40,532 bases of DNA from Methanomicrobiales archaeon. Its GTDB lineage: Archaea; Halobacteriota; Methanomicrobia; Methanomicrobiales; Methanospirillaceae. Every line of letters starts with the position of its first letter. Positions within the stretch are counted from its first letter, which is position 1. This document shows positions 1 to 32,870 of this stretch, piece by piece. The notes under the pieces were generated by a model. That model was given only the letters and a program-made list of their open reading frames with translations, did no database searches and was not told the DNA's origin. The translations under genes and the position numbers were made by a program. The stretch lies in contig JBAXJR010000020.1 in NCBI GenBank assembly GCA_037137755.1, forward strand, positions 1-40,532, read 5' to 3'.

Positions 1-3000
1 GAAGCAAGGTTGAGGTTGGCACTCCGTTCTGCAAAGTCAGGGACATGGGACTGGGACTTCCCTACCGGGAAACTCGTATGGTCCCCGGAGTTCTTTGAAC
101 TGTTAGGTCTGTCCCCGGATGTCCCACCTTCTTTTGAAACATGGCTTGCAACGCTGCACCCGGACGATCGTAAACCGTCCATGGAGAAGATCGATCAGTC
201 GGTACAAGATCACAAGGAACTCTGGAACGAGTACCGGGTTCTCCTCCCGGATGGGGGCCTGCGCTGGATTGGAGCCGCAGGCAGCACATCCTACAATGAT
301 AAAGGTGAACCGCTGCGAATGAGTGGGATATGTATTGATATCTCCGAACGCAAGCAGGCGGAAGAAGCGCTGCGGGAGAGCGAACAGCGTTTCCATTCAA
401 TGTTTGAGTCACACGATTCGGTCATGCTTCTCATCAATCCAGAAACAGGCGAAATTATCGACGCAAACCAGGCTGCAGAACGATTTTATGGGAGTTCTCA
501 CGAGGCATTCTGCCAACAAACTATCCAGGAGATTAATATCCTCACCCCTGAAGAGGTCTCCCGGGAGATGCAGAAAGCTATCCACGAAAAGAACAACTTT
601 TTCATATTCCCCCACCGGCTGGCGAATGGTGAGATACGAACGGTAGAAGTGCACTCCTCTCCGATTGAAATGGGCGGCAAGACAATTCTGTTTTCTATTA
701 TCAACGATATTACCGACCGCAAACTGGCCGAGGATGCACTGCGGGAGAGCGAGGAACTATTACGAGATATCATTGAAAAAAATCCCATGTCAATCCAGAT
801 TGTGGACAGGGAGGGGTTCACGCTCAGGGTAAACCCGGCATTCATTCGGCTTTTCGGTTCTGTTCCTCCGCCGGATTTCTCGATTATTACGGATCTTGTG
901 AAGAGTTACCCTGAACTTGAGAACCACATCTCACGGGTAAAAAGCGGGGAACCTGTTAATTTACCCGATATGAGCTTCAATCCGCACGATATCTATCCTG
1001 AATTGCCGGATGTTCCAACCAGGGTGCGGGCAATCATTTTTCCATTGAATGACAGGCACGGAAATCCACAACGTTTTGTTTTCATGCACGAGGACATCAC
1101 CGAACGCAAGCGGGCAGAGGAGACACTGCAGCAGAGTGAGGAGTGGTACCGTTCAATCCTCCAGACAACCATGGACGGTTTCTGGGTCATCGATATATCT
1201 GACGGGAGGGTGATGGAAGTCAATGAGACCTACTGCCGGATGCTGGGCTATCCCCGGGATGAGCTTCTTACCCTGCATATCCCGGAAATCGACGCTCTCC
1301 TGACCCCTGCCCGGCAGGCAGAGATCATCAGGGATGTCATTGCCAGCGGATCGGCGGTCTTCGAGACACGGCACCTCCGGAAGGATGGCAGTGTCTTCGA
1401 TGTCGAGATCTCCGTGACCTACCTCAACCGTGATGGCGGCAGGTTGATCTGTTTCTGCCGGGACATCACCGAGCGCAAACTGAGGGAGGAGACCCATGCA
1501 TTCCTTGTTCAGAGCGGTTACCCTGGTTCCGGGGAAGATTTCTTTAATTCACTGGCCCGGTACCTTGCAGAACATTTGAATATGGACTACGTCTGCATCG
1601 ATACCCTGGAAGGAGACGGCCTGACCGCTCAGACGGTTGCCGTGTACAACGATGGGAAGTTCGACATAAACGTACGGTATGCGTTAAAAGATACTCCGTG
1701 CGGAGTTGTTGTTGGAAAAACCATCTGTTGTTTTTCTGACGAAGTCTGCCGGTTGTTTCCCAACGATCCGGCACTTCAGGACCTCGGGGCCAGGAGTTAT
1801 ATCGGGACCACGCTCTGGAGTTCTGAAGGCAAACCCATAGGACTGATTGCGTTGATCAGGCGCAAGCCTCTGCAGAACCCCGAAATGGCGAAGGTAGTGC
1901 TCGATATGGTAACTATGCGGGCGGCCGGAGAGCTGGAGCGGAGGCTTGGGGAGAGGGCGCTGCAGGAAAGTGAAGAGAAATACCGGATGTACATCGACCA
2001 TTCCCCAGAAGGGATCTTTATCGTGGATGAGGATGGCAACTACACGGATGTAAATCCGTCTGCATGTTTCATGCTCGGCTACAGCTGCGAGGAAGTTCTT
2101 GTTCGCTCCATCCGTGATATGGTACCTCCCGATCACCTGGCCAGTAGTCTCTCAAGATTCTCGAAGTTAAAGGAAACCGGAATGCTGATGGCAGAATCAT
2201 TGCTGATTAAAAAGAACGGAGACCTGTTGCCGGTTATCTTAAACGCTGTCAACATGCCGGATGGAAAATACCTGGGTTTTTGCACAGACATAACCGAGCA
2301 GAAGCGGGCAGAGGGTATGCTCAGGACCTTAACAACCCACCTCATCCATGCCCAGAAGATTGGCCACGTCGGGAGTTTCGATTTCAACATCCCGGAGAAT
2401 AAAGTTATATGGTCGGAAGAGATGTTCCGTATTTTCGGCCAGGAACCGCAGGCATCCCCCCTCTCCATCGAACAAGTCCGGAAGATGATCCATCCCGATG
2501 ACCGCGAACTTCAGAGGGAACAGACCGAGAAGATCATGGAGACCGGGAGCTATGAATTTGAACACCGGCTCATCAGGCCTGACGGGGATATCCGGTGGAT
2601 TGCCGGCAGGGCCGAGATGGTGGAGTATGATGCGGCGAATGCCCCGGTCCGCATGCTCGGAACGATGCAGGACATCACCGATCGGAAGCGTTTCGAAGAG
2701 GCTATCCGTGAATCGCGCCAGATCCTGGATACGATCATCAAAACTATACCTGCAAGGGTCTTCTGGAAAGATAAGGATCTAACCTTTCTCGGCTGCAACA
2801 CCCAGTTCGCCCGTGATGCCGGCTTTGAAAAACCTGAGGATGTTATCGGAAAGGATGATTATACGATGGGCTGGTGCGAACAGGCGGAACTGTACCGGGC
2901 CGATGATCGTCTTGTTATTGAGAGTGGAAGACCCCGGCTCCTAATCGAGGAGCCGCAGACCACCCCCTCCGGAGAAAAGATCTCCCTCCTGACCAGTAAA

Positions 3001-27192: not shown

Positions 27193-27516
27193 ATGAAACA
27201 ACATGGCCATAGTGCTGAAGAATATCATGTCCCTGAAACAGGAGGGGGAAATGTACCTCTTCTGGATCAATTATCGATTGATAATGGAACCTGGCTTGAA
27301 ATGGAACATACTAAGGGCGCATATATCATCCCCCATGAGCCCTGTAAAAGATGCCTTGTTTCGCTACATGTTACCCTGGATGATTTTGAACATGGATGCG
27401 ACCTCTCCCAGGTATTGCAAAAATCGTCCGAACCAATGCCTGAGGCACCGGGACCAGAAGAAATGACTGTGAATATTGTTCCCAGCAGAGACAAATTTCG
27501 CAGAATATTCAGGTGA
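27193..27516 (+). CDS. Hypothetical acidic protein (107 aa) ahead of amt
   Basis: Fills the glnA-amt gap, and its TGA lies inside the amt Shine-Dalgarno (AGGTGA). No recognisable family. Confidence 0.45.
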
Positions 27517-27524
27517 TGATATAC

Positions 27525-28727
27525 ATGGCAATTGACAGCGGAGATACCGCCTGGCTCCTCGCATCAACCGCCTTAGTGATGTTGATGACACCAGGTGTCG
27601 GGCTCTTTTATGGAGGTCTTGTTCGTAAGAAGAATTTCATCTCCATGGTCGCGATGTCTTTCGTGGCGTTTGCGCTGGTGAGTATCCAGTGGATTATTAT
27701 TGGGTATTCAATCGCGTTTGGCGGAGATGTATCAGGGGCCATGGGAAATCTTACCCTGGTAGGACTTGAAGGAGTGGGGATGGACCCTGGCCCCTATAGC
27801 GTTGCAATTCCCGGGCTCCTCTTCATGGCATACCAGTTGATGTTTGCCGCTGTTACCATGGCAATCGTAACATCTGGTATGGCGGAGCGGGTCAAATTGA
27901 GCTCGTTCATCCTGTTTGCACTTCTCTGGACTACACTGGTATATGACCCTGTTGCACACTGGGTCTGGGGAGGGGGATGGCTGAGCTCACTTGGATTCCT
28001 CGATTTTGCAGGTGGTTCAGTTGTCCATATTACTGCAGGATTTTCAGCTCTCGCCATTGCAATAGTAATCGGCAAACGAGCGGGGTTCGGGACCTACGCA
28101 ATGGAAGCTCACAATATTCCCATGACCCTCCTTGGTGCCGGACTGTTATGGTTCGGCTGGTTTGGTTTTAACGGGGGGAGCACGCTAGCAGCGAACGGGC
28201 TCGCAGTTAATGCACTGGTGGTCACTAATACTTCAGCCGCTGCCGGGGCACTCGCATGGCTGTTTGCATCGTGGATCACTGGTCATCCCAGTTCTCTTGG
28301 AATGGTGAGCGGGGCAATTGCAGGCCTAGGTGCAATTACACCCTGCGCAGGATATGTAGGACCTTTGGTCTCGATCCTGATTGGAGCAGTTGCAGGGATC
28401 CTATGTTACCGGACAATGCTCTGGCGTATCGACAAGGGTATGGATGAAAGCCTTGATGCCTGGTCAGTCCATGGGATAGGAGGACTCTGGGGAACAATTG
28501 CAGTCGGTATTTTTGCATCCGCTGCGATCAACAGTTATACGGGCCTGATCTATGGAAATGTCTACCAGTTTCTCATCCAGGTAGGTGGCGCCCTGTTCAT
28601 TATGGTCTACTCATTTAGCCTGACTTGGGTATTGGCAAAGGTTATTGATAAGTACCTGGGTCTGCGGGTGACTGAGGAAGAAGAGTATGTAGGACTGGAT
28701 CTATCCCAGCACGGGGAACGTGCATAA
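27525..28727 (+). CDS. amtB: Ammonium transporter, copy 1
   Basis: [52 protein letters not shown]. Start set at ATG 27525 by comparison with copy 2. Confidence 0.96.
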
Positions 28728-28747
28728 TCTGTGATGGAGGTGATGAT

Positions 28748-29077
28748 ATGAAGATGATAAAAGCAATTATCCGCCCTGAACGCATTGATTTCGTTAAAAA
28801 AGCCCTAGAAAATCATGGATATTATGGTATGACAATTACCGAAGTAATGGGACGTGGAGACCAGAAGGGTATCACGCTGCAGTTCCGGGGGGGTACAATG
28901 GCCATCGATCTCCTCCCCAAAACATCGATTGAAGTGGTTATCAAGGATGAACATGCTGAAACGGTTATCAGCCTGATACAGCAGGCAGCAAAAACAGGAA
29001 AAATGGGTGATGGTAAAATATTCCAGTTACCCGTGGAAAAAATGGTCCGCGTGCGGACAGATGAAGTGGAGGTTTGA
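28748..29077 (+). CDS. glnK: PII nitrogen regulator, copy 1
   Basis: MKMIKAIIRP, GMTITEVMGRGDQKG, DLLPK, TGKMGDGKIF, RVRT; GGAGGTGA RBS. Confidence 0.95.
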   Translation: MKMIKAIIRPERIDFVKKALENHGYYGMTITEVMGRGDQKGITLQFRGGTMAIDLLPKTSIEVVIKDEHAETVISLIQQAAKTGKMGDGKIFQLPVEKMVRVRTDEVEV

Positions 29078-29109
29078 TATGTAACCCATATCATCCTCCC
29101 AAACTCTCT

Positions 29110-29167
29110 CGTGTAGCGCTCTCTACACGCATAAATCCTGGGATTAGACTCCAACTATCCCAGGATT
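29110..29167 (+). terminator. Two tandem hairpins after glnK (terminator or stability element)
   Basis: CGTGTAG/CTACACG (29110-29129) and AATCCTGGGAT/ATCCCAGGATT (29134-29167), followed by T-rich sequence. Confidence 0.55.
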
Positions 29168-29362
29168 AATTCTGTTTTACTTTATCTGTTAAAAATGTGG
29201 CGAAATACTAAAAATGAGTTCCAGCGAGTCGCAAGAAAATAGCGATGATTTTTAATTGGTATCCTCGCAGGAAAGTAGTGGATATATCTTATTGGGGGTA
29301 GGGAGGTAGGAGAACGCCATCCTGTCGACGTATTCCCTTTTTTTAAAAAAAAACCTCAAGAA

Positions 29363-29722
29363 CCAAGAGGGCTTCGCACCAAAGCGATGAAAATTTGAAA
29401 GGCCAACTGCTCACATTCTTCGCGTTGTGGGATTCAAAATTTCCAATGAAAGTGTCACTGAAATTTTCATCCTGTATGCTTGTGGCCCTTTGGCATCATA
29501 TCCGTTTTCATGATAACCGCCGATGACCGCCCTGCGGTCGAGCATAAAACATGAAAATAATATGCAGCCAAAGATATTTTCGAGGATGGGTAAGTCAAGG
29601 CGGGTCATTTTTTGAGACTGAGATCTCCAATGATAACATAGCCAATTCATTCTCGAGAGCATAAATGCAGATGTAACTGCGAATTGGAAATTGTCCTACG
29701 AGAAATCACTACTTACCCATCC
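29363..29722 (+). ncRNA. Candidate IS110 bridge-RNA-like structured RNA
   Basis: Three consecutive stem domains: 29386-96/29461-71; 29488-94/29567-73 enclosing 29505-12/29550-57 and 29525-30/29534-39; 29584-95/29711-22. TATA-like TTTAAAAA at about 29342. Confidence 0.6.
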
Positions 29723-29732
29723 CGGAGGTCAT

Positions 29733-30959
29733 ATGCAACCCCAAAAGAGTACTGCTTGTGGCATAGATATACATAAGGACTTCTTTGTTGCAGCCATAAT
29801 GAGCCGCGATGGTTCCACCAAGATCGAAAAGTTCGATCATACCCAGGAAGGATTATTATTGCTTAAATCATGGGTTTTGGCAGAAGATTGTTCAACAGTA
29901 GCGATGGAATCCACCGGGAGCTATTGGCGTCCCCTTTACCTCACACTTGAAGGATATGTAGAACTCATTCTCTCAAACGCCTATGTAATCAAGCGAATTC
30001 CCGGACGTAAAACTGATATTATTGATGCTCAATGGATTGCAGAATTGGCATTGAATGGACTACTCACTCCATCCCGTGTGTTCCCGAAAGATGTTCGAGA
30101 GATCCGGGAGCTGACACGGGCTAGGGAAAGACTGGTCGACCAACGCACGGGATGCAAAGCTATTGTTCACGACGTCTTTGATGCAGCCTGCATCAAACTC
30201 TCCTCGGTTATTACGGATATCTTCGGAAAATCAGGGCGATATCTTATCCATGGTCTTCTCCAGGGTAAAACCATTGATGAACTTATTGAAGGAATACCCT
30301 CAAAAAGGGTTCAATACAAAGAAAAATTGCTTAAAAATGCGATTAAATCGGCTTTAAGTACAAGCCAGGTCATTGTCATCGAACAGAACCTCCGGTTGAT
30401 CGATCAGATAACTGAGCCGGTAACCCAGATTGACGATGAAATCATCGGTCGTATGAAGAACAGGGAAGATGATGTCCAGATAGCGATGTCACTTCCAGGA
30501 ATTGGCATCACCGCCGCGGTTACAATTCTTGCTGAATTGGGCGATTATCATGATTTTAAATCCACTGATTCTCTCGCATCATGGGCAGGAATGGTCCCTT
30601 CGGTTTTCCAGTCCGCCAATAAACTCAGGACAGGATCTATCACAAAGCATGGATCAAAACATCTCAGGAGAATCCTTACTGAGGCGGCTCAGGCAGCCGC
30701 TAGAACAAAAGATACTCGCTTTAGTGCATTCTTGCAAGGAAGATCCTTTGCATTCTCTGGCATCTCCTGATTAACCGGGAATTCTATATTGACACACAGA
30801 AGACCAGACCTAGAAACCAAAGTGTAAGACCAAAAACAGTTAATCCAAAATCCATTGAACGTTCAATTGAAATCCTTGTGAAAAGCTGGATATTGTGTCC
30901 AAAAATCAGATATCCTCATGAACAGGCGACGATTTCAGGGGGCTGCAGATCCTCCCTGA
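29733..30959 (+). pseudogene. IS110 recombinase/transposase, disrupted near the C-terminus
   Basis: GGAGG then ATG 29733; CGIDIHK, MESTGSYW, GRKTDIIDAQWIA (DEDD), PGIG, QSA...GSITKHG..HLR. The frame stops at 30770, but the conserved tail LARKILCILWHLLINREFY resumes in another frame at 30731. Confidence 0.85.
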
Positions 30960-31115
30960 AGTATATTTTCATTTGAAAATAACCTTGTATCAGAGAATTA
31001 CGGATAGTATGTTTAATATAAGTAAACCTAATCGCGCGATTTTCTTACTATCCGGATAAAAATTTCTCATTTATCAGGTTTAAATTTCTGAATAATAGAT
31101 ATATTTTTAATAGAT

Positions 31116-31129
31116 AGAAACTAACTTCC
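31116..31129. promoter_or_regulatory. NrpR-type operator (one mismatch) at the amt copy 2 promoter
   Basis: AGAAACTAACTTCC a few nt downstream of TATA-like TTTTTAAT (31104-31111). Confidence 0.65.
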
Positions 31130-31321
31130 TTCTATCAGAGGAGAGTACAAGTCAAACCATGATACCCCAGATAAGGGTAAGTATCAGGACATTCACATCT
31201 CCAGCCCATCCTCTGATAAACCCTCATTCAAGAATTTGAAGCAGATCAATTTAATTCCTGGCAGAAAAGTAAAATTAAATTATGGACGTTACATTTCGTT
31301 CAACAGGATGGTGAAAATTAC

Positions 31322-32530
31322 ATGGCAATCGATACGGGAACAACGGCCTGGCTCCTTGCAGCCACGGCACTGGTAATGCTCATGACACCCGGGGTAGGAT
31401 TCTTCTACGGCGGGCTGGTACGTAAGAAAAATTTTATCTCGATGATTGCATTGGCATTCATCGCGTTTGCACTCGTCAGTATCCAGTGGGTACTAATTGG
31501 ATATACCCTGGTATTCGGCGGGGACACAGGGGGTTTCATTGGTAATCTTTCAAATATGGGTCTCGAAGGAGTGGGGATGGAAGCCGGTCCATATAGTCCT
31601 GCAATTCCTGGATTACTCTACATGATCTTCCAGCTAACCTTTGCAACAGTAACGATGGCCATTATAACCTCAGGACTTGCTGAGCGGGTAAAACTCTCGT
31701 CATTCATTGTGTTCGCGCTACTGTGGACCACGCTCGTGTACGATCCTCTCGCACACTGGGTTTGGGGCGGTGGATGGGCACAACAGATGGGTGCACTTGA
31801 TTTCGCCGGAGGTACTGTGGTGCATATCAGTTCAGGTTTCGGGGCACTGGCAATTGCCCTTGTAATCGGCGCCCGTTCAGGTTACGGCAAGTACATGATG
31901 GAACCGCATAACATACCGATGACCCTGCTCGGAGCTGCGTTACTCTGGTTCGGCTGGTTCGGGTTCAATGCCGGAAGTGCAATTGCCGCCAATGGTCTTG
32001 CAGCGAATGCATTTGTCGTCACGAACACGGCAGCCGCTGCAGGTGCCCTGGCCTGGATGTTTGCAAGTTGGTACCATGGGAAACCAAGTTCTCTTGGGAT
32101 GGTATCTGGCGCAATCGCGGGTCTTGTCGCAATTACTCCGGCATCAGGGTATGTAACACCAATGGCGTCCATCGCAATTGGTGCCTTTGCAGGCCTCTTA
32201 TGTTACGGCGCGATGCTCTTCCGTATGCGGAAAGGACTCGACGAAAGTTGTGATGCATGGGCAGTCCACGGTATGGGTGGCCTCTGGGGAGCGCTCGCAA
32301 CGGGCATCTTTGCAGCAGCCGCGGTGAACGGGTGCTCCGGTCTCCTGGAAGGAAACACACACCAGTTTGTAGTAAATGCGATTGCTGCCTTTGCTGCACT
32401 GATATATGCGTTCGGAGTTACGTATATCCTTGCGTGGGCCGTAGACAAATTCATGGGACTGCGTGTATCTGAAAATGAAGAATATGTGGGACTGGATATA
32501 TCCCAGCACGGTGAACGTATCAATATATGA
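31322..32530 (+). CDS. amtB: Ammonium transporter, copy 2
   Basis: [48 protein letters not shown]; GGTGA RBS. Confidence 0.96.
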
Positions 32531-32540
32531 GGTGAACCAG

Positions 32541-32870
32541 ATGCAAAAAATCGAAGCAATAATAAAACCAGAGCGGTTTGAATTCGTGAAAAGAGCACTT
32601 GAGGAGAATAAAATATACGGACTTACCGTTTCAGAGGTGGAAGGGCGTGGAGACCAAAAAGGGATCGTACTCCAGTACCGCGGGGGGGAGATAACCGTAG
32701 ACCTCATTCCAAAATGTAAGGTGGAAGTAGTGGTCAAAGACAAAGACCTCCAAATGATCCTGGACCTCATAATTAGTGCTGCACGGACAGGAAAAATCGG
32801 TGACGGGAGAATATTCGTATCCCCTGTCACAAAATCTATCCGTGTACGGACAGGGGAAATTGAAGAATGA
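32541..32870 (+). CDS. glnK: PII nitrogen regulator, copy 2
   Basis: GAGGTGA then ATG 32541: MQKIEAIIKP, EVEGRGDQKG, YRG...DLIPK, TGKIGDGRIFV, RVRTGE. Confidence 0.95.
   Translation: MQKIEAIIKPERFEFVKRALEENKIYGLTVSEVEGRGDQKGIVLQYRGGEITVDLIPKCKVEVVVKDKDLQMILDLIISAARTGKIGDGRIFVSPVTKSIRVRTGEIEE

Follow-up and report, generated by a model that had tools for sequence, protein, structure and literature searches.

To our knowledge, no guides other than bridge and seek RNAs programme both DNA partners of a recombinase, and further natural examples are sought for genome engineering. Bridge RNAs are stated to be 150-250 nt long, and in the guide order given for IS621 the bottom-strand guides lie on the 5' side of the loops (Durrant et al. 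2024, PMC11208160; Hiraizumi et al. 2024, PMC11208158). The seekRNAs of IS1111-type elements are described with the top-strand complement 5' of the bottom-strand complement and with the RNA encoded downstream of the gene, apart from a few exceptions with an upstream non-coding region, of which ISMtsp17 is named (Siddiquee et al. 2024, PMC11187229). The subterminal inverted repeats of that group are given as 11-13 bp or 7-17 bp, and their extensions as 6-7 bp at the left end and 3 bp at the right (PMC11187229, PMC11208160). An archaeal member was to be expected, since 662 archaeal IS110 recombinases were counted by Vaysset et al. and bridge RNAs were predicted for most ISfinder entries by Durrant et al. 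(PMC11208160). In the literature searched no archaeal bridge RNA was described, and relatives of the family reported here may already be listed in the ISfinder-wide tables that accompany Durrant et al. and Siddiquee et al.

The DNA analysed here, called the window, is a stretch of 40,532 nucleotides from a Methanomicrobiales archaeon (GCA_037137755.1, contig JBAXJR010000020.1). Its first-pass annotation had proposed that an archaeal IS110 gene is preceded by a structured leader of about 360 nt with three domains. By direct reading of the sequence, all stems and features listed there were found within 1-2 nt of the positions given to them. Comparison with related copies leads us to a different delimitation: with high probability, 29515-30977 is a non-autonomous methanogen IS110 copy whose left end would encode a guide RNA of the bridge/seek type with its core at 29584-29722, and the DNA upstream of 29515 is flanking repeat. 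The features to which we refer below are as follows.

29340-29353: T/A run, taken in the first-pass annotation for a TATA-like promoter; flank, outside the element
29340..29450, no strand assigned: repeat 'B', outside the element, with the 5' arm of domain 1; copies elsewhere in the genome
29386-29396 with 29461-29471: domain 1 stem, GATGAAAATTT with AAATTTTCATC
29461..29514, + strand: arm of repeat 'C', outside the element; it ends in ...TTTTCATGAT, which forms the left target flank
29488-94 with 29567-73 and 29497-501 with 29560-64: domain 2 stems CTTTGGC/GCCAAAG and CATAT/ATATG
29505-12 with 29550-57: domain 2 stem TTTTCATG/CATGAAAA
29515..30977, + strand: IS110-family element, AA core at both junctions (29515-16 and 30976-77)
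29525..29539, + strand: left-end hairpin GACCGC-CCT-GCGGTC, formerly the 'cap' of domain 2; a hairpin stands in the same place in the other subfamilies inspected
29551..29560, + strand: left copy of the covarying subterminal inverted repeat, ATGAAAATAA; partner at 30963-30972
29584..29722, + strand: conserved core of the candidate RNA, formerly domain 3; closing helix P1 formed by 29584-95 (GGATGGGTAAGT) with 29711-22 (ACTTACCCATCC)
29599..29643, + strand: stem-loop A; basal stem 29599-603 with 29639-43, hairpin 29614-27
29642-48 with 29681-87 and 29667-70 with 29677-80: inner stems of domain 3, CCAATTC/GAATTGG and GCAG/CTGC
29650..29704, + strand: stem-loop B; hairpin 29666-70 with 29677-81
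29724-28: GGAGG, 1 nt after the close of P1
29733..30770, + strand: recombinase gene, broken; ATG at 29733, GGAGG upstream
30963..30977, + strand: right terminus; inverted-repeat copy ATATTTTCAT, then the variable triplet TTG and the core AA

The ends of the element were set by comparison with nine related copies in other flanks and with one contig in which a right end meets a left end. Across nine left junctions with different flanks, likeness begins at AACC(G/A)CC, which is 29515 in the window, and at six right junctions it ceases past TTTTCAT-TNG-AA, which is 30977. In contig L047 the right end is fused to the left end via AA, while at the L017 locus the left flank, AA and the right flank together make an uninterrupted repeat arm that is present in the genome of the window; relatives' contigs part from the window at 30978 and enter it at 29505. 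These comparisons establish the boundaries at 29515 and 30977, giving an element of about 1461 bp with one core counted and a left non-coding end of 218 nt. No second copy of it was found in its own genome, which holds two paralogs with about 48% protein identity on contigs C17 and C29; the close copies in other flanks came from sister genomes and public collections.

Collecting related copies to define the ends, as the first-pass annotation had recommended, thus fixed both junctions but yielded no clean empty site. In three sister genomes (L067-L069) the orthologous glnK-amt spacer holds, between the PII gene and the second transporter gene, another, conserved segment of about 720 nt with a small reading frame, corresponding to window 29255-30987. 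Since that segment is different, the window locus was rearranged and not merely hit by an insertion, and the left and right flanks of the element may derive from different sites. On either side of the element, at 27513-29077 and 31322-32870, an ammonium transporter gene stands in tandem with a PII (GlnK-like) gene, and the two transporter genes are about 70% identical in nucleotides.

Joints between right and left ends were seen at three loci. The L047 contig is 1590 nt long with its joint at 231-595; at L093 the right end is joined to the left end of a divergent downstream copy; the L096 contig ends 7 nt into the next left end. Such joints could be an excised circle, a tandem pair or assembly wrap-around. 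The copies of L047 and L052 (83% and 51% protein identity) lie on short contigs in bins labelled as the bacteria Smithella and Patescibacteria, and it seems likelier that a repeat was mis-binned than that it was transferred. For the C17 and C29 paralogs, insertion within the loop of a palindrome was considered and dropped, as the family-wide terminus TTTTCAT-NNN-AA and the guide matches place TTTTCAT within the right terminus.

With the left end at 29515, the segment 29340-29514 falls beyond the element's border, and neighbouring repeat DNA makes up over half of the supposed leader. The intervals 29284-29350, 29340-29450 and 29461-29514 belong to three repeat families, each present in several copies elsewhere in the same genome, and the latter two also occur in relatives. 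Repeat 'B' has seven further copies in its own genome (contigs C18, C51, C40, C2, C53, C22 and C26; 68-79% identity), none of them among the transposase-gene matches, and more in sister genomes. No copy of 29284-29350 or 29340-29450 adjoins a recombinase gene. Repeat 'C', which contributes the 3' arm to domain 1 and the 5' arm to domain 2, was found on C53, C19 and C3 (in both orientations, as a palindrome) and in two copies beside the paralogous elements on C17 and C29. Judged from these repeats, domain 1 is flank DNA and domain 2 is an inverted repeat across the element boundary, in which flank 29488-29514 faces left end 29515-29573. The short 'palindromic' repeats at G000:C3:115634-115759 and in the C17 and C29 flanks hold both the TTTTCAT motif of the right terminus and the internal motifs of the left end, and may be family debris or mini derivatives and also favoured targets.

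The identification of the gene as an archaeal IS110-family recombinase holds. The window protein matches DEDD_Tnp_IS110 (PF01548, 98.5 bits, 4.2e-28) and Transposase_20 (PF02371, 88.9 bits, 2.8e-25) in Pfam, and the intact 424-aa relative L017 scores 283.4 bits, at a cutoff of 140, with the NCBIfam model NF033542 'IS110 family RNA-guided transposase'. Likeness to IS621 is distant (phmmer, E 8.8e-13). In one pairwise alignment with IS621 chain 8wt6_A, read by eye and with the catalytic residue numbers taken from PMC11208160 and PMC11208158, the D, E, D and D residues and the serine of S-x-PGIG are retained, the aligned motifs being GID, E(S/A)TG, KTDxxDA and S(L/I)PGIG. The gene is broken by a 49-nt deletion between 30729 and 30730, which shifts the frame and leaves 345 aa as compared with 424 aa in seven relatives; the 49 letters are present at this place in related contigs of two runs, and alignment with L017 and L046 gives the same 49-nt gap. 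From this lesion the window copy is read as non-autonomous, with its gene disabled. Intact relatives have their stop codon at a distance of about 20 nt from the right terminus. The C17 paralog (29480 down to about 28200) is intact with 426 aa, and the C29 paralog (G000:C29:20513-21790) has a stop after codon 230.

Across some 70 loci, the 170 nt before the start codon follow one architecture, in which P1 leads to stem-loop A, whose internal loop has two hypervariable strands, and then to stem-loop B, which holds the other internal loop. When 36 different leaders were aligned (A3), 23 consensus pairs emerged with 96.8% of cells paired, and 11 of the 23 pairs show double changes; no shuffle out of 500 equalled the observed values, and slid controls were paired at 29-43%. 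Double-sided changes occur in 6 of 10 pairs of P1 and in 2 of 4 pairs of the stem-loop B hairpin, although many of the double changes in A3 reflect one split, between eight rows of the window family and the other 28, and hence few independent events. The alignment thus establishes a conserved structure, and what had been called domain 3 stands as its core, with GCAG/CTGC kept (helix 4); its inner stem CCAATTC/GAATTGG, paired in 119 of 247 cells, is not conserved, and the 3' arm of that stem is the putative donor guide.

A covariance model built from A3 (R1) gives the window 116.8 bits at 29581-29723 and recovers more members of the family, one of them at 40% protein identity. Matches to R1 were found in 20 of 61 genomes of the order, and those in the window's own genome fall at precisely three places, each with a recombinase paralog. 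An Rfam scan of 28900-31400 by E-value returned four chance-level matches, with none in the leader. Folded alone, domain 3 is more stable than most shuffles (z -3.10, 2 of 200 as good), and its reverse complement is equal (z -3.25), so that energy alone does not fix the strand; G-U pairs and the geometry of the guides argue for the + strand. The comparison points to a candidate guide RNA of about 140 nt within the left end, upstream of the recombinase gene. Its conserved core of 139 nt, and even the whole left end of 218 nt, do not bear out the earlier view of an RNA longer than that of IS621 in the manner of a ~360-nt leader, the IS621 RNA having 177 nt and the core being shorter than this.

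P1 itself excludes GGAGG. In the close family, UUUUCG at 29577-29582, before P1, can pair with CGGAGG at 29723-29728 (three of six pairs G-U), and this predicted extension would mask the ribosome-binding site where transcription begins upstream of P1; it shows no compensatory change and its pairing is limited to the close family. The sequence AATAATAT at 29556-63 was considered as a TATA box that would place the RNA start at P1, and was rejected, being at the same site an inverted-repeat copy that is not TATA-like in other subfamilies.

Both internal loops carry strands that follow DNA next to the core. In the window, the 3' strand of loop A at 29630-37 (ATGATAAC) is identical to 29510-17, that is, to left flank, core and first element base, and its 5' strand at 29603-11 (GGTCATTTT) is the reverse complement of core and right flank (30976-84) at 8 of 9 positions. 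Over the family, the last 9 nt of the 3' strand agree with the left junction of the same locus at 7.12 positions on average and at 8/9 or more in 15 of 48 loci; the non-self comparison has a mean of 5.60, a level already raised by the common AA(A)C, with at least 8/9 in 4 of 1726, and the reverse-complement control has a mean of 5.69. The matching flank is located 83-98 nt upstream of loop A. Among five copies of the close family, guide equals flank in 12 of 15 cases at three variable positions. In a separate comparison the guide base that follows the core agreed with the first element base in 16 of 21, a count from which no rule is drawn, as the alignment register varies between subfamilies. 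Complementarity of the 5' strand to core and right flank reaches 6-9 nt in four copies of the L050 type and 8/9 in the window and C17; family-wide this rule is weak (3 of 29 self comparisons and 13 of 808 non-self comparisons gave an anchored run of 6 or more; means 3.41 and 2.94), and a whole-guide search with the 5' strand was noisy. Loop A is accordingly put forward as a candidate target-binding loop.

Loop B follows the other end of the element. Its 3' strand at 29683-90 (ATTGGAAA) agrees with right terminus and core at 30971-78 (ATTTGAAA) at 7 of 8 positions, and across the family the loop B triplet equals the variable triplet of the right terminus in 20 of 26 loci with 11 distinct triplets, a level reached by none of 10000 permutations; two of the six misses arose where the wrong motif was picked. 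Inspection of the loop B 5' strand and of the linker before P1 gave no consistent match to the start of the left end, and hence no right-donor guide. We regard loop B as a candidate donor-binding loop. The covariation of the loops with target and donor, anticipated in the first-pass annotation, was thus found for the left flank and the right terminus, whereas it is weak family-wide for the right flank and did not extend to the left end. Together with the conserved helices, the covariation of the internal loops with target flank and element end upholds its proposal of a structured RNA candidate at the left end.

The termini are further linked by an inverted repeat of 8-10 bp, with its left copy set some 35 nt into the element and its right copy 3 nt from the core. 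The reverse complement of the right-terminus 10-mer matches its own left end at 8.83 of 10 positions on average in 29 loci, as against 6.96 for non-self, and at 9 of 10 in the window. A mini element of about 72 nt was observed in sister genome L019 (G004:C9, about 1480-1560, minus strand). It combines the initial ~45 nt of the left end with the right terminus, lacks the RNA core and the gene, and occupies the same repeat end (…TTTTCATGAC-AA) as the full element of the window. The left-end hairpin at 29525-29539 is probably a cis-acting end feature, because it is retained in this mini element, where the RNA core is missing.

Since loop A follows left flank and core and loop B follows the right terminus, the left end has the signature of a bridge/seek RNA, and the following course can be envisaged. 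Loop A would read the target, its 3' strand, in the sense of left flank and AA core, pairing with the bottom strand, and its 5' strand being complementary, in the window copy, to core and right flank. Loop B would read the donor by its 3' strand, which has the sense of right terminus and core. By analogy with IS621, we infer that the RNA is made and bound, as well as its 5' and 3' ends and the chemistry: the RNA-bound recombinase would pair the junction of right and left ends in an excised circle with the target, and strands would be exchanged at AA. Favoured targets would be TTTTCAT-NNN-AA sequences within short repeats similar to the termini of related elements. The guides of the window copy are imperfect, with 7/8 for the donor and 8/9 for the right target.

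The earlier reading, of one ~360-nt RNA that starts near 29342, has its three domains all in the element and also gates translation as an archaeal elaboration, drew on a fold that does exist. The minimum-energy structure of 29340-29732 shows three domains at -112.7 kcal/mol (z -3.77, unmatched by any of 100 shuffles), domain 2 has high stability when folded alone (z -6.55, 0 of 200), and a transcript entering from the flank could form the whole; moreover, TTTTCAT precedes the left end in all junctions compared, and its pairing with ATGAAAA is possible in every copy. Yet domain 1 alone is within chance by energy (z -1.00, 32 of 200 shuffles as good), domain 2 is reduced in copies with other flanks to the TTTTCAT/ATGAAAA part of 7-9 bp, the covariance model of the conserved part starts at 29581, and, above all, 29340-29514 is absent from other copies of the element and repeated without it. 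We give this reading a very small chance. Equally slight is the probability that the agreement of loops and flanks is a by-product of nesting, in which elements inserted into end remnants of relatives and the motifs TTTTCAT, AA and ATGAAAA recur by descent. Targets, right termini and internal motifs of the left end do have TTTTCAT/ATGAAAA in common, many left flanks are repeat arms, and the AA(A)C in common lifts the non-self scores; however, self and non-self separate clearly within the family at variable positions, with 11 different triplets in the comparison of loop B with the right terminus and with guide triplets that follow flank triplets at loop A in the close family, and targets of the L093 and L050 types, whose left side does not resemble TTTTCAT, agree with their guides over 8-10 nt.

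More weight, although still little, is due to an explanation without a guide, by which the left-end structure is a 5' UTR or a feature of the DNA end that serves recombinase binding or translational control, and the matches are subterminal DNA repeats, inverted or direct. That the right terminus and an internal left-end site form a covarying inverted repeat of 8-10 bp, that short CAT/ATG repeats adjoin the core and that P1 ends 1 nt before GGAGG would all suit such an explanation. It is nevertheless improbable in our judgement: the matching strands sit in internal loops between helices with double changes, which is the arrangement of known guide RNAs; the loop A strand tracks a flank that differs among copies of one element type, as a fixed repeat could not; and the mini element retains the ends without the RNA core, which fits a product acting in trans. 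A guide RNA of the bridge/seek type at the left end is thus the reading that we retain.

Set against IS621 as described in the papers cited above, the candidate RNA of the methanogen family likewise lies in the non-coding left end upstream of a recombinase with DEDD and Transposase_20 domains, and has two internal loops, target first and donor second, with guides that take in the 2-nt core found at both junctions. In size it is inside or slightly below the range of 150-250 nt given for IS110-group bridge RNAs, and insertion into short genomic repeats and short inverted repeats flanking the donor sequence are shared with that group as well. It differs in that in both loops the putative bottom-strand guides occupy the 3' side, in reversed order, that a 12-bp closing helix surrounds both loops and that the core is AA and not CT; the protein is only distantly similar, the left inverted-repeat copy lies ~35 nt inside, and no right-donor guide was identified. 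With IS1111-type elements, as far as they are characterised in the cited accounts, the family shares the order with the complement of the top strand ahead of that of the bottom strand, the bottom-strand position being firm and the top-strand position firm in part of the family, and in part also the subterminal inverted repeats, the ~3 nt between the right repeat and the core being in agreement. In contrast to nearly all IS1111 members the RNA would lie upstream of the gene and not downstream, and the left inverted-repeat copy is ~35 nt from the end instead of 6-7. Judged by such features alone, the family is a combination of IS110-group and IS1111-group characters.

The closest annotated proteins are bacterial IS110 proteins of the ISArsp3 kind and relatives in Alicyclobacillus, Caballeronia and Bacillus thuringiensis plasmids, with 33-39% identity over 86-96% of the protein; ISArsp3 likewise has a longer gap to the neighbouring gene on the upstream side (318 nt) than downstream (128 nt). 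Searched with R1 with filters off, the loci of four bacterial relatives gave nothing significant, the best E-value being 0.087 in B. thuringiensis. This match (L163, 706-861, 11.1 bits) is located just upstream of an IS110 gene whose protein is 34% identical, and a P1-like helix in it ends 25 nt before the gene start, which hints that a similar enclosed architecture could exist in bacterial relatives.

For annotation, the locus teaches that half of a long, highly stable fold ahead of an IS110 gene can be flank, and that the ends of an element need setting from several copies before an RNA is proposed. The notion of a candidate archaeal IS110 guide RNA is right in kind and wrong in its 360-nt extent, and an architectural variant of such RNAs is a plausible description of what the left end encodes. 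The candidate is compact (~140 nt), offers guides for target and left donor, an AA core and ends mapped from natural copies, and intact natural relatives exist, L017 and L081 with genes of 424 aa among them. Tentatively, and with more doubt than confidence, we suggest that the family, so far known from methanogens, represents a distinct bridge RNA variant, placed at the left end as in the IS110 group, with the strand order and covarying subterminal inverted repeats of IS1111 and one closing helix around both loops; that it may be a living intermediate in the shift of the guide RNA from one end to the other that has been proposed, and the first archaeal bridge RNA with defined guides; and that these elements may prefer TTTTCAT-NNN-AA at right-end junctions or remnants of their relatives, in which case the short palindromic repeats of these genomes may largely be family debris and minis. 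The reversed guide position, if true, would bear on the relationship between IS110 and IS1111 and on the freedom of the recombinase in presenting its guides.
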